Source: Candidatus Hermodarchaeota archaeon (GTDB taxonomy: Archaea; Asgardarchaeota; Heimdallarchaeia; Hodarchaeales; Hodarchaeaceae). Taken from it: a DNA stretch of 32,000 nt. How positions within the stretch are numbered: the stretch's first letter is position 1; every line of letters begins with the position of its first letter. The stretch spans positions 90,001 to 122,000 of the forward strand of contig JBHLKY010000006.1 of assembly GCA_048886185.1 (NCBI GenBank). Reading direction: 5' to 3'. Position numbers and translations under genes: made by a program. The notes under the pieces were generated by a model. That model saw only the letters and a list, made by a program, of their open reading frames with translations. It was not told where the DNA came from and did no database searches. This document shows, piece after piece, positions 10,463-21,221 of this stretch.

Positions 10463-10675
10463 TCACGCAATTAATCTTCGGGAAACATAATCAGAAAGCT
10501 TTTTGTTTCTAGGGATTCGGGTTACAAATGCATCCATACCACATTCATTACACTTCAAACGAAGTGCACCATGATTGACAATAGTATTTATGGTATGAGT
10601 ATGACACCAAGGGCATAATAGCTCTAGTTCGGCCCGATGTTGAAGATCTACATTCTCTTCGATTTCGATTGTCAT
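10463..10675 (-). CDS. Small C4 zinc-ribbon protein (70 aa), possibly Elf1-like
   Basis: CPWC-x17-CNEC; GGAGG Shine-Dalgarno 6 nt before ATG. Confidence 0.75.
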   Translation of the reverse strand: MTIEIEENVDLQHRAELELLCPWCHTHTINTIVNHGALRLKCNECGMDAFVTRIPRNKKLSDYVSRRLIA

Positions 10676-11462: not shown

Positions 11463-12626
11463 ATGGTAATTCTTTCTAGAATTTTTAGCAAATATGCGTT
11501 AATTGGAGAAAACCTCACATTAAAAGAGAATGTATTAATAAAGATCAATAACAAAGGTAAGATATCAAGGGTGGAATGCGATACACCACCTAAAAAAATT
11601 ATCTCGGAGTGTTCATTCTCTCATCATTTACTTCTGCCTAAATTTATCAATTCTCATACTCATCTAGGAGATTCCATTTTAAAGGATCAGGCATATCAGT
11701 TGTCACTCAATGAGGCTGTTGGAGTAAATGGGTATAAATATCAAACTATAGGGCATAATAGAATCCAACGTATTGCTGCGATGAGATCAGCTATAATAGA
11801 AATGATTGAGAATGGTACTGCAGCTTGTTGTGATTTCAGGGAAGGAGGATTAAATGGAATAAATGAACTCCGAGAAGCAGCAAAAAACTTACCAATTGAT
11901 CTTCACATACTTGGCCGTCAGCACACAAAGGCTGATTTAAACGATGTTATTTCACAATGTAACGGTTTGGGATTAGCAACACCTCTATTATTCTCTCGAA
12001 AAGAATTAGAGATAATTCGGTTACAAACCTCTTCTTCAAATGTTTTAGTCGCAACACACATTGGAGAAAATCATCAGATAATTCAGGAATCTAAAGAAAA
12101 ATTTGGATTTTCTGATTTACAAGTTGCTCTTAAATATCTTAATTCAGATATTTTGATCCATTTAACCGTAACTGATGAACATGAGCTCGGTGAAATACCT
12201 CAATCTAAATTTATCGTTTTTTGCCCTCGTTCCAATGCTTATTTTGGATTAGGATTTCCTCCTGTTAATTATTTTTTAGATAAACACCACTTGCTTGGAT
12301 TAGGAACAGATAATGTAATGGTTAACACCCCAAATGTATTAGAAGAATTAAGATGGCTTGTACTGCGGTTGAAGGAACAAGGGATCTCAATAGAACCGAT
12401 ACAAGCGTTACAATTTATTACAACAAATCCTTCTAAACCTTTAAAACTGCTCACAGGCTGTATCCAAGTAGGTTACTGGGCAGATTTGTTAGCTATTAAT
12501 CTTCAAAGCAATAGAACCTTATTCGGGGCAGATCCTGTCTTAACACTACTCTTTCGTTGTCAGCTTCCAGAAGATATTACTCTTAATCTTTTTCACGGAG
12601 AAGAAGTTACAGATGAGCTTGTTTAG
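11463..12626 (+). CDS. Metal-dependent amidohydrolase/deaminase (SsnA/MTA-SAH deaminase superfamily)
   Basis: PKFINSHTHLGD (HxH), THIGE (HxxE), IHL, CPRSN, GLGTDN, IQVGYWADL. Confidence 0.88.
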   Translation: MVILSRIFSKYALIGENLTLKENVLIKINNKGKISRVECDTPPKKIISECSFSHHLLLPKFINSHTHLGDSILKDQAYQLSLNEAVGVNGYKYQTIGHNRIQRIAAMRSAIIEMIENGTAACCDFREGGLNGINELREAAKNLPIDLHILGRQHTKADLNDVISQCNGLGLATPLLFSRKELEIIRLQTSSSNVLVATHIGENHQIIQESKEKFGFSDLQVALKYLNSDILIHLTVTDEHELGEIPQSKFIVFCPRSNAYFGLGFPPVNYFLDKHHLLGLGTDNVMVNTPNVLEELRWLVLRLKEQGISIEPIQALQFITTNPSKPLKLLTGCIQVGYWADLLAINLQSNRTLFGADPVLTLLFRCQLPEDITLNLFHGEEVTDELV

Positions 12627-13326
12627 CCTTCCTTCAATTCGACCTTATGTAATTCTATCTGCCGCCATCAGTCTTGATGGACACATCGCTACACTCAATG
12701 GAGACTCACTTCTATCAAATAGAGAAGATTGGATACGAGTTCACCATTTAAGAGCGGACTCCGACGCAATAATGATTGGCAGTGGAACTGTTCGAGCTGA
12801 TGATTCAAAATTGACTGTTAACGAAGATTTAATTGAGGTAAAAAATATAAACCATCCCATTCGGATTGTTGTCAGCTCTGATGGCATGATCCCTCTAAAT
12901 TCGAGGATTATTATTCATCGTCCAGACATTCCAACTCTTATTGCTACAACTTCACGATGTTCATTGATACAAACGGAGAAACTGGAAAAAAGAGGTTGTA
13001 AAATCATTAAATGTGGAAATGGCCCCTTAGTCGACCTAAGTAAGCTCCTATTAGTCTTAAAGACGGATTTTCAAGTTAATAAATTAATGCTTGAAGGAGG
13101 AAGCCAATTAAATGGGGCCATGTTAAATCTCCAGTTTATTGACGAAATTCAATTAGCAATTGCCCCTGTTATCTGCGGTCAAGGAATCCCACTTTTCAAG
13201 CTTTCTAAAGCTTTTTACATGTTTTCGGAGTCACCTTTTTTTGATATAAAATCATACAATCAAATTGGTGACATGATTTGGCTTAAAATGTTAATTAATT
13301 ATCAATCACGAGAGATTGCATTATAA
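12613..13326 (+). CDS. 2,5-diamino-6-ribosylamino-4(3H)-pyrimidinone 5'-phosphate reductase (RibD C-terminal/Rib7/ArfC type)
   Basis: RPYVILSAAISLDGHIA, VHHLRADSDAIMIGSGTVRADDSKL, LMLEGGSQLN, IAPVICG; no N-terminal deaminase domain; 14-nt overlap with the upstream gene. Confidence 0.88.
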   Translation: MSLFSLPSIRPYVILSAAISLDGHIATLNGDSLLSNREDWIRVHHLRADSDAIMIGSGTVRADDSKLTVNEDLIEVKNINHPIRIVVSSDGMIPLNSRIIIHRPDIPTLIATTSRCSLIQTEKLEKRGCKIIKCGNGPLVDLSKLLLVLKTDFQVNKLMLEGGSQLNGAMLNLQFIDEIQLAIAPVICGQGIPLFKLSKAFYMFSESPFFDIKSYNQIGDMIWLKMLINYQSREIAL

Positions 13327-13378: not shown

Positions 13379-14275
13379 TCATCCTAAAAAGAACATTACT
13401 ACAGCATAAATTATTCCAATGATTACCGCGTGAGATCCTTCAGGATCAAGAGATTTAGCTGCAAAATAAATTAGTACAACCCCCCAAATCAATATGCCCA
13501 TTTCTATGAAAAAAAGTATATCTCCCGTTATCCCGAGAGGTGTACTCATTGAAGATAGATCAAAAATATCATTTACTACATATGTTGTTGGCTCAGTAAA
13601 TAATGAAAAAAGGATAAGGCGTATCAGTTCACTGAATATTCTGGGGAGAAAACTCCAACCTATAATTGTAGCTATAGTTTTAAAATTTCTTTCATGTGAG
13701 GGAACTTGTGATGAAATTATCGATAATAATATCCACAAAATCACACTCCCGATTAACCAGCTAATGATGAATCCCAAAGGGGCAAAAAAAGCTGTAAATA
13801 TCGTCATAACCTCCACCACTTCTTCCATAGAAATGTCCATTCCTGAAAATCCTAAACTGTCATAAAATGCTTGTGTAAACTCTATTGTTGACTTTGAAGA
13901 GAGAACGAATAAAGCTATACCTGAAATAATTCCAGCTATCAAAACAACAAGAAATGGTTGGCCTAAATTCGGTCGTTTAACTATTCGAGCCATTTCCTGT
14001 TGAGGAGAAATCAGAACTCCTTGAAAATGCTGAAAAAACGGAGAGGGATGCTCAGCTGTTATTCTTTCTGGTCTATAAGAATCAGGATAAGAGGGAGTAC
14101 CTCTATCTCTTACAATTGAGGGGTATGAGGAGGGAGGTTTAGAACTAACTACTCCAGTTGGATCAACAGTTGGCACTGGGGTTCCGCAGTAAGCACAAAA
14201 AGTAGCTCCTCCAAGTAATTTCTGACCACAATTTCCACAGAATTTTGGGGAGCCTTTAGGACTGTTATTACTCAT
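13379..14275 (-). CDS. Double zinc-ribbon plus Yip1-domain membrane protein
   Basis: FCGNCG...FCAYCG, Pro/Ser-rich linker, then VLISP...five hydrophobic segments including IIGWSFLP. Confidence 0.78.
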   Translation of the reverse strand: MSNNSPKGSPKFCGNCGQKLLGGATFCAYCGTPVPTVDPTGVVSSKPPSSYPSIVRDRGTPSYPDSYRPERITAEHPSPFFQHFQGVLISPQQEMARIVKRPNLGQPFLVVLIAGIISGIALFVLSSKSTIEFTQAFYDSLGFSGMDISMEEVVEVMTIFTAFFAPLGFIISWLIGSVILWILLSIISSQVPSHERNFKTIATIIGWSFLPRIFSELIRLILFSLFTEPTTYVVNDIFDLSSMSTPLGITGDILFFIEMGILIWGVVLIYFAAKSLDPEGSHAVIIGIIYAVVMFFLG

Positions 14276-14486
14276 GAAAATCAGCTTTTGGTAGTGAAAT
14301 TTTTCATTAATTATAACAAAGGTACATGGAACATGGATTAAAAAATCTTCTTAGAAGGTTTATTTTAAATATAGACAATAGAACATGTGGTCATGATTGA
14401 TGACAAAAGTCTTCGAATTCTATCAAAAATATTAATGATGAGCGATATTGGAGATTAGATCGAAGAAAAAAAAAACCTATATGCCT

Positions 14487-14804
14487 TTAACTAGAACGAT
14501 CTTTTAACACAACGATAGTAAAGCCTGCAGCCTCATCAGGAGTGATAATTATTTCTGATTTAGGCATTTCTACATAAACACTTTGAAGTCGGCCATGTGA
14601 AAGAGCATCCGACACACTTCGAACCTTCTTAACCAATGATGCAATATGAGCTGATACTCTTTCTGCATCTGATTGTGGGAGATTACTTTGAAGTGGTAGC
14701 CCATCTTCATCACAAACTAAAATTCCTTTCACTCCACGTCGGGCTGCTAATCTTTTGATTGTGTTTTGCAATACAGAAGGTATAACATATTCATCATTAG
14801 ACAT
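14487..14804 (-). CDS. Roadblock/LC7 protein, dynein light chain roadblock (DYNLRB)-like, paralog A
   Basis: TIKRLAARRGVKGILVCDEDGLPLQSNL...KVRS...EIIITPD parallels DYNLRB [28 protein letters not shown]...KARS...EIMVAPD. Confidence 0.88.
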   Translation of the reverse strand: MSNDEYVIPSVLQNTIKRLAARRGVKGILVCDEDGLPLQSNLPQSDAERVSAHIASLVKKVRSVSDALSHGRLQSVYVEMPKSEIIITPDEAAGFTIVVLKDRSS

Positions 14805-14825
14805 TTAATTTCATCTTCCTTTTTA

Positions 14826-15170
14826 TTACTTTGATGTTAATGTCATAGTACTACTCTCCCGTTTTACTAGTGCCACAATAATGATTTCGGAGTCATAATC
14901 AGGAATTATTTCTACATCCCCAACCTCCAACTCTAACCGAATGCTTCTAGCTTCTTCTTGTGAAATTTCCCTTGAAATGCTTCTCACTTTTCCCACCAAA
15001 GAGGCAACATGTGCTGCTACTCTCTCTGTATCCTCTTCTGGAAGACTAGATTGGAGTGGTAATCCATCTGTATCACTCAACACAGCACCATATACTCCTT
15101 TATGTTTCCCGACTGATTCTATAACTTTTTCTAGCGCCTGTTGCGATAAATACCCTGCTTCTTGTGACAT
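14826..15170 (-). CDS. Roadblock/LC7 protein, DYNLRB-like, paralog B
   Basis: HKGVYGAVLSDTDGLPLQSSL...ASLVGKVRS...VEIIPD; shares a long block with the downstream paralog. Confidence 0.88.
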   Translation of the reverse strand: MSQEAGYLSQQALEKVIESVGKHKGVYGAVLSDTDGLPLQSSLPEEDTERVAAHVASLVGKVRSISREISQEEARSIRLELEVGDVEIIPDYDSEIIIVALVKRESSTMTLTSK

Positions 15171-15647
15171 TTTTCATCGTATCCTTAAGTGCCCAAGCAT
15201 ATGATGGCCAACTAATAACGATCTAAACAGTAAATCACAATTGTACTTAAAACCTTTTGCTTATAAGTTAGTGGAATTTTAATACTACTCTTGAGAATTT
15301 ACTTAATAATTCAATCAAATGAATATTCTCTGTACATAAACTTATTACGGTAATTTAAAATGTATAATATCAAAATCGGTTAAAAATTTTGATTTATATG
15401 CCTAAATGGAGCTTTTAAATGGGTATTTAGATACCAACTACTCAGATGTTAAGCTATAAACCAATTATTTGAATTTTTATCCTATTATTTATGGATTAAT
15501 CAATCTAAGAAGAATTTAAGGAAGACTTCATGGTCATCATAGTATGTAAGTGATAAATTAATGTGATTTTATAGAGAGAGTTCTGGTAGGCTAAACCTTA
15601 AAAGCAGCTAAAAACAATGAATTCATAATCCTTGGAGCGCATCGCGA

Positions 15648-16097
15648 TTGGTCCCACATAAAGATGAAAACATTAACACATCCCAAGAAAAACTAGATGA
15701 AATTTTGTCATCTATCAAAGAATTAAGATATCATATTGGCATCTTAGATCACAGAATCTCTCAACTCGAGGGGCATATAGACCAGAAATTATCGACTGTT
15801 ACAAAATCTGTTATCTTTCAATCCAGTGTTGATGATGAACAGAAAACAGATTTTGATGATTTAGATGAACATTTGAAACGGACATATCAAACCTTAGCTA
15901 CTGCTCAGGAACCTCTGACTGCCTCACAATTGGCTGAAAGGATGGGAAGGAGTCGCAGCACAACAAGCTATCATTTAAACAAACTTGAAAAGATGGGAGT
16001 TCTTGAAAAATTCCCAAGCCCATTAAAACAAAGTTCAAGAAGTATTCTTTTCCGTCCGAAAGATCGATCATTTGAATTAATAGACTCAGAGCATTAA
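15648..16097 (+). CDS. Coiled-coil plus winged HTH (ArsR/TrmB-like) transcriptional regulator
   Basis: Heptad-like LDEILSSIKELRYHIGILDHRISQLE, then LTASQLAERMGRSRSTTSYHLNKLEKMGVL; start uncertain (TTG). Confidence 0.8.
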   Translation: MVPHKDENINTSQEKLDEILSSIKELRYHIGILDHRISQLEGHIDQKLSTVTKSVIFQSSVDDEQKTDFDDLDEHLKRTYQTLATAQEPLTASQLAERMGRSRSTTSYHLNKLEKMGVLEKFPSPLKQSSRSILFRPKDRSFELIDSEH

Positions 16098-16151
16098 ATT
16101 TTCTTCTGTATAATTTATTAAAGGAAAAAAGTTGAAAAAGAGTTTTATTAA

Positions 16152-16688
16152 TCAAGAGGTAAACTCTAGAATTTCTTTCCCTAATTGATCGAAAGCAGCT
16201 TGAACCCCATCACCTGTTTTCGCACTAGTTTCAATGAAACTTAATCCAAGACGGTCAGCAAGCTTTTTACCTTCTTCTGTAGACACGGTTTCTGTTCCTT
16301 CCTCACGTAAATCAGTTTTATTTGCCAAGAGAACCACAGGTACGTCTTGATCACGTTTAGAGTTAGCTAAAATGTCTTTGAGCCATTTTTCCACATTTTC
16401 AAACGTTTGTCGTCGTGTGATGTCATAAACAAGGATTCCACCAAAAACTTTTGTATAATAAGCCTTTACAACATCTTTAAACACAGGTTGTCCGGCGAGA
16501 TCCCATATTTGCCAACGAATATGCGTATTATTTACTGTTGTATCATATAGGGCGAAATCGGCGCCCATCGTACTTAAATAATCAGTTTCAAACCCCTCAC
16601 CTAAGTAACGTTTACGTAGAGAGGTTTTGCCAACAGCTCCGTCTCCCAGTAGTACAATCTTCCATAAACGATGATCCTCATTACTCAA
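16152..16688 (-). CDS. Rab-like small GTPase (Asgard type)
   Basis: G1 GDGAVGKT, G2 YLSTMGADF, G3 WDLAGQ, G4 NKTD, G5 ETSAK; AAGGTGA SD before the TTG start; no C-terminal cysteine. Confidence 0.95.
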   Translation of the reverse strand: MSNEDHRLWKIVLLGDGAVGKTSLRKRYLGEGFETDYLSTMGADFALYDTTVNNTHIRWQIWDLAGQPVFKDVVKAYYTKVFGGILVYDITRRQTFENVEKWLKDILANSKRDQDVPVVLLANKTDLREEGTETVSTEEGKKLADRLGLSFIETSAKTGDGVQAAFDQLGKEILEFTS

Positions 16689-16992: not shown

Positions 16993-18696
16993 TTAATCAT
17001 CTGATTTGGAATTAATATGAGACACTTGTCTCACATATCCTCGTCTTCGCAATTCTTCGAGGCATTCAAGCTCTAAATTTTGGTCTCGTTTTGTTATTTC
17101 TGTAGCTGTTTCGGGAGAAAGCACTTTGGAAGTAAGTAGAGCTCTAATAGTGGGTCTCAATTTTTCTGGTAGATCTAGAATTCCTAAAGTATCAAAGGGC
17201 TGAATTTGGACATATTTGGGAGGTTCCGAACATACACAAATCTTTCTCCCAATTTCTTCTTCCAATTTATGTCTTTTAGACCGTGGATTAATTCCTAATT
17301 TAAGCAAATAGTCATGTCTAGGATTATGGGCAGTTGTAAACTCATAAAGCAATAAATCAGTGACAAAAGGGTCACTGATGTTTTTCTGAACATAATTATG
17401 GAATAAGATTTCAGGATCGCCTCTTAATAGATCCATTTCAGCCCCGTATGCAAGTATATTCTGTCGTAACTGCTCATTTACAGTCACTATATCAAAAACA
17501 TATGTTTCAAAAATTTCTTCAACATATTTCGTTGCCCCCGCAAATCCACTAGTCTTTCCAGTCTTAGAAAAAATATCTATTGCTTCTTTGAATTCTTTCT
17601 CAAATCTCGTTATATATTGAAAAAGTAATTCGGTTAAGTTATCACTCATAATCGGGCTATAAAGAATACCAATTACATGTTTCCCCTTCCTTTGAGCAAT
17701 TTTCATGTTTCCATTATCAATATAGCGTAAATCGCCGCGACGCCCAGCTGTTTCTGATACCATATGAGCTATGCTAGTTAACGCTGCTGTAATAAGGGCA
17801 GGATTTTTCATTTCATCCTCTGCCTTTCCAAAAAAGTAATAATACATAGTTGATCCTGATTCACGATCTGTAATAAATAAAGCTATAGGTGAAGCTTCTG
17901 TTCCAATAGTAATCCAATCAAACTCTTCTTTTTCTGTGAATTCTTGGAATTTTTCACTCAAATCTTGAAATGTTTCATTCACAATAGATTGTGGTGATTC
18001 TAAATAATAAACACCTTGATCAGAAAAGTCATTAAGTTCAGGAATCCACGGGATTGCATAGAAAATCGGGTGTCTGAATTTTGATTCCATTTGTGTGAGG
18101 AATTGATCGAATTTACCAAAAACTAAAGGAAATTTGACCATGTTCATGATTAATAAAGTAGGTGTGGTAAGGAAGGACAAAAAGTTTTGAATAGTAGATT
18201 TTGTTAGATTAAATGTAGGGTACTTTTCTGATGAAATAACCCAAACCATATCACTCTGTAGAATTGTAGCCATTGTAATACTGTTTTCTTCTAAGCTCAC
18301 AGGGAGAATGAACACTAAAAGATCGATGGTATCCTTGAAAAAGAGGGCGTTGACACGATATTTAGTACGTTCTCTTAAATCACTTGTTGGCAATGGACAC
18401 CCTGCAGAAGGAAGAACACGTATAAAGGATCCTTTATCCTCATCCTCGAAGATTGATAAAGATTCGCTTACAAGAATATCTTCAGATATCTCGCTTAGAA
18501 AATCTGTACTAGTAAAATTCGATTTACCATATCTAAGTAAAGTATATCTTAGTTTTTCAGTAATGGAAAAATCAACAATAAGAATACGAAGTCCAGGCTT
18601 TGAACGGGCATAAGCTAAAAGGGCATTTAATGCGATTGTTTTTTTCCCACAACTAGGGGTACGAGAATAAACACTTATGATTTTGGGAGTTACCAT
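16993..18696 (-). CDS. Degenerate MinD/ParA-like domain fused to a longin domain and a C-terminal winged helix
   Basis: aa1-255: MinD-like order of motifs (IISVYS..SCGKKT, ILIVD, SDMVWV, LIMN, AIPW, ESPQS). aa270-397: longin pattern (LFITDRESG, LITAALTSI, YITRFEKEF, F...VEEIF). About aa505-560: wHTH (LEELRRRGYV). Confidence 0.68.
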   Translation of the reverse strand: MVTPKIISVYSRTPSCGKKTIALNALLAYARSKPGLRILIVDFSITEKLRYTLLRYGKSNFTSTDFLSEISEDILVSESLSIFEDEDKGSFIRVLPSAGCPLPTSDLRERTKYRVNALFFKDTIDLLVFILPVSLEENSITMATILQSDMVWVISSEKYPTFNLTKSTIQNFLSFLTTPTLLIMNMVKFPLVFGKFDQFLTQMESKFRHPIFYAIPWIPELNDFSDQGVYYLESPQSIVNETFQDLSEKFQEFTEKEEFDWITIGTEASPIALFITDRESGSTMYYYFFGKAEDEMKNPALITAALTSIAHMVSETAGRRGDLRYIDNGNMKIAQRKGKHVIGILYSPIMSDNLTELLFQYITRFEKEFKEAIDIFSKTGKTSGFAGATKYVEEIFETYVFDIVTVNEQLRQNILAYGAEMDLLRGDPEILFHNYVQKNISDPFVTDLLLYEFTTAHNPRHDYLLKLGINPRSKRHKLEEEIGRKICVCSEPPKYVQIQPFDTLGILDLPEKLRPTIRALLTSKVLSPETATEITKRDQNLELECLEELRRRGYVRQVSHINSKSDD

Positions 18697-19019: not shown

Positions 19020-19838
19020 ATGGAACAAGAGACGCAAGATCAAAATCCTAATGTCTCATTATCTTTAGATGAAGTTGGACTAACAGACTTTCAAATTCAA
19101 GTTAATATAACCCGAGGTACGAGAGTTTATCATTATCAAACGACTGTTAGTGTCGTAATTAATTTGCCACCTTCCCGAAAAGGAGCCCATCTGTCTCGAT
19201 TCGTAGAATCTATCTCGGAGATCTTGAGTAGTGAAGTCCATACTCATTATTCATTAGAAGAGATGTCAATCCACGTTTTACAGACTTTAAATGAACATCA
19301 TCCATTTGAAAAAGGATCAATGACTCTAGAGTTTATATTCTTTACAAATAGAACTACTCCAGTCTCTCAACGATCCTCAGTTGAAAATTATAATGCTCAA
19401 TTGACCACATGGTTGAACCAAGGGGATATCACACATGATTTAACTTTAGGAACGTATGGTAGTACCGCTTGCCCTCATGCACTTTCTCAAAACTCTGCAA
19501 AACGCACACATATCCAACGAGCTTATGCAGAAATCAGTTTAAAAGGCAGAACAGCAGATATTCCTGACATGGAAGATATAAGCATGATTCTTGATGAAAG
19601 TTTCTCAGCTCCGACGTTTTCTCTAATAAAAGCAAAAGATGAGCAATGGATTATCAATCATATGTGGGAACATCCATTTTTTGTTGAAGATGTGACACGA
19701 AATCTGTTACAATTTGCATTAAAGCAATTCTCAGACCGGAGGCTAGAAATTCGAGCAAAAACTATCTCTCAAGAGTCCATTCATAAGCACAATATCATAT
19801 CGAAAGGTAGTACAAAAACAGAAGGTTATGGTAAATAA
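19020..19838 (+). CDS. GTP cyclohydrolase, FolE2/MptA family
   Basis: LDEVG, KGAHLSRFVE, TACPHA, HIQRA, KAKDE, PFFVEDVTR, ESIHKHN. Confidence 0.88.
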   Translation: MEQETQDQNPNVSLSLDEVGLTDFQIQVNITRGTRVYHYQTTVSVVINLPPSRKGAHLSRFVESISEILSSEVHTHYSLEEMSIHVLQTLNEHHPFEKGSMTLEFIFFTNRTTPVSQRSSVENYNAQLTTWLNQGDITHDLTLGTYGSTACPHALSQNSAKRTHIQRAYAEISLKGRTADIPDMEDISMILDESFSAPTFSLIKAKDEQWIINHMWEHPFFVEDVTRNLLQFALKQFSDRRLEIRAKTISQESIHKHNIISKGSTKTEGYGK

Positions 19839-19889: not shown

Positions 19890-21221
19890 TTAGGTCTCTC
19901 CTTTCTTCTCTCTGAAGATTCTATTCCGAAATTTCTTAGCTGCGGCAAAAATTCCAACACCACTTGCTTCGACAGCCTTTCTACCTACAGTTAAAGCAAT
20001 GTCCGTCTTACTTATTTCTCCTCTCTTAATACGTTCCATGTAATCAACGAGATCTTCATAGGGAGGAAGAAAATCAAAACGATAAATGTCAGAAGCCCAA
20101 TAACCAGATCCTCCTTGCACAATATAGAAAAATATTACTATTACAAGAATAAGAACCATAAAAATGAGAGTAATATCATGATAAACTTCAGAAAAAGAAA
20201 GATCTCCAATTAAACTTGTTATTACATCAGGTAATAATCCACTCATTAATTGAAGTTGAAAAACTTGAAATCCTAGTGCAAGACCCAAGTAAATTAACAC
20301 TACCCCTTCACCTCCAACTAGACCCACAAATCTACCAATACGAAAAGGATCTTCTTTAATTTCCTTCTTTGACGAATCTACAACGACTCCTTTCATCTTA
20401 ATTCTACGTGAAACGTTTTGGGCTGTATATACGAGTGAAAAAAGTACCATTATGTAGTTGAAACTAGTAATTATGCCTGCTGATCCGTCAATAGAACTGA
20501 TAAAGATCATGATTTGATTTGGTATACTCACTACAAAAAAGAAACCTATCACTGTATTAAACACATCATCACTTAATAAAATTCCTTGAGCCACTAGTAT
20601 AATTAAGATTGCCACAAAAACTCCAATAATCCCGAGAATCATATATGAATAGCTTGTTGGTGTTTTATTATACCCAATATAGATCATAACCAGATTCCAA
20701 ATAAGAGATAATAATGCTATTAGTGTCATTACCCCAGAAAATATTGATTTGCGATCTGTCGTCGGTTTTCCTAGGAATAGTACGCTTCCTGTGATTTTGT
20801 TGGAGAATAATCCTTTTGAAAAAGAAAAAGTAGCTATTGGAACCAATAAAGCCCAAATCAGTAGAGCAAGCAACGGGAAATAAGTAGTTACGAGATCAGA
20901 AACATTAGCTATGACAGCAAATATAGCAGCAACTAGTAAAAGAAGAAGAAAACGAAAAAATAAATTTAACCTTTTAGAAAATAAACCTGAAATGATAAAT
21001 CCAATTGCTATGCTAATTTGTAGTGCAAATATCACGTTAAGCAGATCATCGGTTATTATATCTGCAGCTTGGCTTTGAAATGCAAATGCACCAGTTGTAA
21101 TCGCTGAAGTTATAAACAAAATTATTGAAAAAAGGATAAGACGCCTTGATAATAGAATTCGTACCCCACCAAACAATGTTGTTTTTAAATAATCCCAAAA
21201 TGCCTTTTCTACATAACTCAT
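19890..21221 (-). CDS. Polytopic membrane protein of unknown function (roughly 10-11 TM segments)
   Basis: Long ORF with many hydrophobic segments and a charged cytoplasmic tail; no motif recognised. Confidence 0.8.
   Translation of the reverse strand: MSYVEKAFWDYLKTTLFGGVRILLSRRLILFSIILFITSAITTGAFAFQSQAADIITDDLLNVIFALQISIAIGFIISGLFSKRLNLFFRFLLLLLVAAIFAVIANVSDLVTTYFPLLALLIWALLVPIATFSFSKGLFSNKITGSVLFLGKPTTDRKSIFSGVMTLIALLSLIWNLVMIYIGYNKTPTSYSYMILGIIGVFVAILIILVAQGILLSDDVFNTVIGFFFVVSIPNQIMIFISSIDGSAGIITSFNYIMVLFSLVYTAQNVSRRIKMKGVVVDSSKKEIKEDPFRIGRFVGLVGGEGVVLIYLGLALGFQVFQLQLMSGLLPDVITSLIGDLSFSEVYHDITLIFMVLILVIVIFFYIVQGGSGYWASDIYRFDFLPPYEDLVDYMERIKRGEISKTDIALTVGRKAVEASGVGIFAAAKKFRNRIFREKKGET

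Follow-up and report, generated by a model that had tools for sequence, protein, structure and literature searches.

The window analysed here is a 32,000-nt stretch (G000:C6:90001-122000) of an Asgard archaeal genome of 4.84 Mb with 35% GC, whose best protein hits carry the names Hodarchaeales or Hodarchaeota. It carries a pair of overlapping genes encoding an amidohydrolase and a pyrimidine reductase:

11463-12626, plus strand: amidohydrolase P0001, 387 aa, with a PF01979 (Amidohydro_1) match (E 1.8e-32, 113 bits against a cut-off of 25 bits)
12613-13326, plus strand: ArfC/Rib7-type 2,5-diamino-6-ribosylamino-4(3H)-pyrimidinone 5'-phosphate reductase, 237 aa, a stand-alone RibD_C protein
12613-12626, plus strand: overlap of the amidohydrolase and reductase genes, 14 nt

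Both open reading frames were confirmed with their start and stop positions, and the overlap on the plus strand has the length given in the original prediction. The reductase begins with an ATG at 12613, the amidohydrolase ends with a TAG at 12624-12626, and a GGAG lies approximately 13 nt before the reductase ATG. The overlap suggests that translation of the two genes may be coupled.

Several other features of the window were recorded. The 1.2-kb gap upstream of the amidohydrolase-reductase operon holds a 70-aa zinc-ribbon ORF with a CxxC...CxxC pattern (10463-10675, minus strand), whose DNA is 71-74% conserved in the syntenic gap of two genomes of the same genus (G102 and G107). Positions 13379-16688 are occupied by a eukaryote-like cluster whose synteny is kept within the genus, consisting of genes for a Yip1-domain protein that has a zinc ribbon at its N terminus, a pair of Roadblock/LC7 proteins, a winged-helix regulator, and a small GTPase of the Ras family. 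A FolE2/MptA-type GTP cyclohydrolase is encoded 5.7 kb downstream of the pair (19020-19838, plus strand; PF02649 171 bits, below the NCBIfam cut-offs) and probably serves pterin synthesis, outside the pathway of the amidohydrolase and ArfC. Two minus-strand ORFs, 16993-18696 and 19890-21221 (567 and 443 aa), matched no Pfam family.

The sole domain match of the reductase is RibD_C (residues 11-196, E 1.2e-39). The domain search detected no CDA domain (PF00383) in either the reductase or the amidohydrolase, bearing out the original observation that the reductase lacks the zinc deaminase domain of bacterial RibD. The protein scored 158.8 bits against TIGR00227, above the cut-off, and its best solved relative is M. 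jannaschii ArfC (MJ0671, 2AZN; E 1.4e-38), which, like yeast Rib7, is a stand-alone RibD_C protein without Lys at the substrate-specificity site. At this position, B. subtilis RibG has Lys151, yeast Rib7 has Thr35, and archaeal enzymes have Asn (PMC3631187). The window reductase differs from M. jannaschii ArfC in having Ser (Ser16, aligned with Asn9 of 2AZN) instead of the usual archaeal Asn, and in a TIGR01508 score of 153 bits, below the cut-off of 186. Among 55 reductases linked to the amidohydrolase, the position is occupied by Ser in 32 and by Asn in 23, and Lys occurs in none. The reductase therefore belongs to the ArfC/Rib7 type and, lacking Lys at the position of BsRibG K151, would take the undeaminated substrate. 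The presence of Ser or Asn rather than Lys in the linked proteins is likewise consistent with reduction before deamination, the archaeal order assumed in the original prediction, and M. jannaschii extracts indeed carry out the reduction first (Graupner 2002, as cited in PMC5397151).

The best family for P0001 is NF005552 (PRK07213, 'chlorohydrolase'), matched with 223 bits over profile positions 9-369 of 382. This score is below the curated cut-off of 294 bits; the next family scores 83 bits, approximately 140 bits lower. No other protein of the genome, which encodes about 12 further amidohydrolases, matches NF005552 strongly; the paralogues of P0001 do not exceed 74 bits. Across 42 aligned family members, H65, H67, H199, H233, and D283 never vary, and E202 is almost invariant; the HxH...HxxE...H...D set pointed out originally is thus real and conserved throughout the family. 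Furthermore, K92, the DFRE stretch at 124-127 (D124-F125-R126-E127), R152, and C254 are conserved specifically in this family.

An AF2 model of P0001 built on the 42 sequences reached a mean pLDDT of 94.1. Its top Foldseek matches were COG0402-type deaminases (probability 1.00, query TM-score 0.79-0.87, 14-20% identity), and the arrangement of HxH (strand 1), HxxE (strand 5), H (strand 6), and D (strand 8) on a TIM barrel places P0001 in the mononuclear, COG0402-like deaminase subtype. The matched structures include MTA/SAH deaminase (4F0R), TM0936 (1P1M), isocytosine/8-oxoguanine deaminase Vcz (7WW2), guanine deaminase (6OHB/2UZ9), and the triazine hydrolase TrzN (3LS9), which have the TIM-barrel plus beta-sandwich fold and the catalytic set in common with P0001. 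Their activities span the deamination of MTA, SAH and adenosine, of isocytosine and 8-oxoguanine, and of guanine, besides that of TrzN, and several of these relatives strip a 4-oxopyrimidine ring of its 2-amino group, the chemistry required in the pathway. On the other hand, P0001 is shorter than these enzymes (387 versus approximately 430-470 residues), shares only the low identity given above with them, and has its own invariant residues (K92, DFRE 124-127, R152, and C254) and another genomic context.

A quick maximum likelihood search on 47 rows, with SH-aLRT support, recovered the 35 family rows, P0001 and 34 others drawn from seven archaeal groups, as a single clade (94), and six COG0402-like paralogues of the host genome as a separate clade (99). 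P0001 clustered with members from Hodarchaeales (100) on a long stem branch, which accounts for its low NF005552 score. Judging from these sequence comparisons, P0001 is a new, divergent member of an already known candidate deaminase family.

The original prediction had been made contingent on the genome having no separate RibD-type deaminase, and none was found. The two PF00383 genes of the host genome encode a ComEB/dCMP-deaminase-like protein and a yeast-type cytosine deaminase, neither of which is of RibD type. The second of these, a 136-aa CDA protein (G000:C11:6091-6378), was considered as a stand-alone RibD deaminase, its match to RibD being weak (36.9 bits). It was rejected since yeast cytosine deaminase is a far better match (2O3K, E 2.8e-30, versus 3e-4 for RibD 2HXV) and since no counterpart is found in G062, a genome of the same genus that has the pathway. 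The reaction type proposed for the amidohydrolase, hydrolytic loss of the pyrimidine 2-amino group, is that of the N-terminal domain of RibD and of fungal Rib2, and Rib2 also acts after the reduction, as the amidohydrolase would. However, RibD and Rib2 have the CDA fold, which is unrelated to the amidohydrolase fold, so that the archaeal enzyme would represent a non-orthologous displacement.

We then turned to phylogenetic profiling and synteny with ArfC-type reductases, the check suggested originally, and both supported the pairing. With a threshold of E ≤ 1e-20, an amidohydrolase homologue was detected in 45 of 121 genomes of the phylum. All 45 also encode RibD_C, and in 38 of them the reductase gene lies directly downstream on the same strand. 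A consumer of 5-amino-6-ribitylaminouracil was likewise present in every one of the 45 genomes (CofH in 39, RibH in the remainder), and the families of the phylum with neither CofH nor RibH were also without the amidohydrolase. Family f3 appeared to be an exception, having RibH and CofH and no amidohydrolase, and was rejected as such: its genome G054 has a divergent NF005552 member adjoining ribH, which scores 139 bits against the profile and falls below detection at the threshold used. In another genome of the sample (G006), the amidohydrolase lies in a RibB-RibC-RibH-ArfA-amidohydrolase-ArfC array and reaches 322 bits, above the NF005552 cut-off. Two patterns in the first step were also recorded. 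In family f9, RibA was found in 14 of 17 genomes and nothing else of the pathway, while in family f12 (12 of 15 genomes) and in f19 the amidohydrolase and ArfC are encoded and neither RibA nor ArfA was found.

The association extends beyond this phylum. We inspected 80 further loci from GTDB species representatives covering Asgard archaea, Nitrososphaerota, Bathyarchaeia, Thermoproteota, methanogens, and Halobacteria. Rib or cof genes lie beside the amidohydrolase gene in 53 of them, arfC being directly downstream in 44, and the gene stands alone in 27. The order in Asgard loci is amidohydrolase-arfC-cofG-cofH, and that in Nitrososphaerota, Thermoproteota, and Bathyarchaeia is ribB-(ribC)-ribH-arfA-amidohydrolase-arfC. 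In Methanotrichaceae, arfC and the amidohydrolase gene are arranged divergently, and in Methanobacteria and Halobacteria the amidohydrolase gene is solitary. At one locus of the phylum sample (G071), amidohydrolase-arfC-cofG-cofH are directly preceded by a gene for a FolE-type GTP cyclohydrolase I (L108:6762-7319, minus strand; PF01227 198 bits), and the genome has neither RibA nor ArfA. It was considered as a conserved first enzyme where RibA and ArfA are absent, but none of the 80 other loci showed it.

We compared the five genomes of the genus (the window genome G000, G062, G102, G107, and G119), which are drafts of 91-96% completeness. RibA, CofD, and the CTP-dependent riboflavin kinase RibK were present in all five. 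By contrast, RibH/RibC (PF00885) and RibB (PF00926) were found in none of these five drafts, nor was ArfA, and tblastn with Asgard RibB, RibC, RibH, and ArfA seeds gave no match in G000. The genes cofD, an MJ0144-like gene, cofC, cofG, and cofH of G000 lie on the same contig as the window, approximately 53 kb before the amidohydrolase-arfC pair; the MJ0144-family gene between cofD and cofC (G000:C6:39651-40412; L105:6651-7412, minus strand) encodes a Dus-like flavoprotein. Given that ribB, ribH, and ribC were not found, yet ribA, cofC, cofD, cofG, cofH, and the riboflavin kinase gene are there, the pair most likely supplies the synthesis of FO and F420 only, and not that of riboflavin. Read most simply, the gene set points to import of riboflavin, with RibA, ArfC, and the amidohydrolase there to supply FO synthase. 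Of the riboflavin-pathway role originally envisaged, the shared pyrimidine branch is supported, and riboflavin is most likely not its product here.

Within the genus, the amidohydrolase, CofG, and CofH occur together in G000 and G062 only and were not found in the drafts of G102, G107, and G119. The surroundings of arfC are nevertheless kept in G102 and G107, where Maf, an aminotransferase and/or a TrpB-like gene, arfC, Yip1, and two Roadblock genes remain in synteny, and a search of the syntenic gap in both genomes for a pseudogene remnant of the amidohydrolase revealed none. These two genomes thus retain RibA and ArfC with no deaminase or known consumer, and the reductase may not strictly depend on the amidohydrolase.

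From the genes, fold, motifs, synteny, and phyletic patterns of the pair, we infer the substrate, reaction, and step order of the amidohydrolase as follows. RibA, encoded elsewhere in the genome, would convert GTP to 2,5-diamino-6-ribosylamino-4(3H)-pyrimidinone 5'-phosphate, and the reductase (12613-13326) would turn the ribosyl into the ribityl group. The amidohydrolase (11463-12626) would then remove the 2-amino group of 2,5-diamino-6-ribitylamino-4(3H)-pyrimidinone 5'-phosphate by means of a metal-activated water, with H65, H67, H199, and D283 as predicted metal ligands and E202 and H233 as predicted proton shuttles, yielding 5-amino-6-ribitylaminouracil 5'-phosphate. After dephosphorylation by some phosphatase, CofG and CofH would turn this product into FO, the F420 chromophore, while riboflavin would be taken up and phosphorylated by RibK.

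Overall, we consider it likely that the pair forms an operon for the middle steps of the pyrimidine branch common to riboflavin and deazaflavin synthesis, in which P0001 is the predicted deaminase of the ArfC product, here serving F420. Synteny, co-occurrence with ArfC and with the consumers, the fold with its catalytic set, and the failure to find a RibD-type deaminase in the genome all support the amidohydrolase as the partner deaminase of ArfC, which was the core of the original prediction. We counted against this reading the score of P0001 below the family cut-off together with its long branch, the solitary gene in Methanobacteria and Halobacteria, and the dozen or so other amidohydrolases of the genome.

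Three other assignments were weighed. The one that fares best, though we consider it unlikely, keeps the amidohydrolase as the deaminase of the pathway and moves it to another point, so that it would act on the ribosyl form, as in bacteria, or on a dephosphorylated ribityl compound. The present data are compatible with more than one step order and phosphorylation state. The family-invariant K92, R126, R152, and R256 could bind a phosphate, as far as can be judged from their conservation. Action on the ribosyl form is nevertheless difficult to match with the linked reductases, which never have the Lys by which bacterial RibD selects the deaminated substrate, and with the reduction-first order of M. 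jannaschii extracts cited above.

A still less probable assignment is that of an ordinary nucleobase or nucleoside deaminase, acting for example on guanine, isocytosine, 8-oxoguanine, MTA/SAH, or 5'-deoxyadenosine, which merely lies beside arfC. The closest solved structures do carry such activities, the JGI label of family members is 'cytosine/adenosine deaminase-related', and there are orders in which no rib or cof genes cluster with the gene. However, a chance neighbour of this kind is hard to reconcile with synteny that holds in at least five archaeal phyla, with the strict co-occurrence of the amidohydrolase both with ArfC and with either CofH or RibH, and with its loss along with cofG and cofH within the genus. 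Further, the family forms a clade apart from the COG0402-type paralogues of the host, which are sited in a purine-breakdown region.

The weakest assignment, a replacement for ArfB that deformylates the formamidopyrimidine made by the archaeal GTP cyclohydrolase III, would fit the position of the gene between arfA and arfC in many archaea and the capacity of amidohydrolases for amide hydrolysis, and is nonetheless highly improbable, since RibA (GTP cyclohydrolase II) releases formate itself and needs no deformylase, this genome and its whole class have RibA, with no ArfA found, and keep the amidohydrolase (ArfA in none of the sampled genomes of families f1, f2, f3, and f5, RibA in nearly all), and both the signature of HxxE plus H and the closest folds are of deaminase type. 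The use of RibA rather than ArfA thus argues against a deformylase and leaves deamination of the ArfC product as our preferred function for P0001.

This function has been proposed before. Archaea apparently have no orthologues of the deaminase domain of RibD (Rodionova et al. 2017, PMC5397151), and a candidate named 'PyrD', proposed from clustering and co-occurrence in a 2010 book chapter, remains to be tested (PMC5397151). HVO_2483 and MJ0699 are the candidates, for which experimental confirmation has been called for (Pfeiffer and Dyall-Smith 2021, PMC8305020). In a 2026 review on the enzymology of riboflavin, no archaeal deaminase is named, and the literature we searched yielded no report of an enzyme assay for any NF005552 family member. 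We take NF005552 (PRK07213) to be the 'PyrD' family (MJ0699/HVO_2483; SEED role 'Pyrimidine deaminase archaeal predicted'). The M. jannaschii and H. volcanii genomes, used as controls, contain NF005552 matches, and Haloferacaceae carry family members; within the literature searched, neither PMC8305020 nor PMC6629838 names the NF005552 family for MJ0699/HVO_2483. A homologue search started from a Methanobrevibacter member returned, among the matches listed, Methanobacteria only.

By best HMM match and by tree, P0001 and 'PyrD' fall in the same family, and they have the same clustering with arfC and rib/cof genes. P0001 differs in sitting on the divergent Hodarchaeales branch, below the family cut-off (223 versus 294 bits), and in its setting: its only partner at the locus is arfC, cofGH lie 53 kb away, and the genome has RibA in place of ArfA, with no riboflavin-specific genes found. 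As to the original proposal of a candidate archaeal deaminase, its role is supported whereas its novelty is not, the family having been put forward in 2010 and again in 2017 (PMC5397151, PMC8305020). The deaminase idea is a rediscovery and the gain is incremental. What the locus adds is the argument from RibA rather than ArfA, the co-loss with FO synthase within one genus, and the inference of F420 rather than riboflavin as the product served. The locus gives independent comparative support to the existing candidate family, at one of the last steps towards archaeal riboflavin and F420 precursors for which no assayed enzyme was found. Given RibA without ArfA and the joint presence or absence with FO synthase within the genus, P0001 is a reasonable target for an assay.

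The pattern within the genus may also bear on how the pathway evolved. We tentatively propose, as a possibility we would not yet favour, that the branch of RibA, ArfC, and the amidohydrolase was uncoupled from riboflavin synthesis in this genus and came to feed FO synthase only, and that cofG, cofH, and the amidohydrolase then disappeared from sister lineages in which cofD, RibA, and ArfC persisted. That loss, with cofD, RibA, and RibK retained, suggests salvage of FO. If uncoupling and loss did take place, FO would be salvaged from the environment, and the product of RibA and ArfC would possibly have a second use in Asgard archaea. More generally, the locus suggests that some Asgard archaea may make F420 while importing riboflavin.
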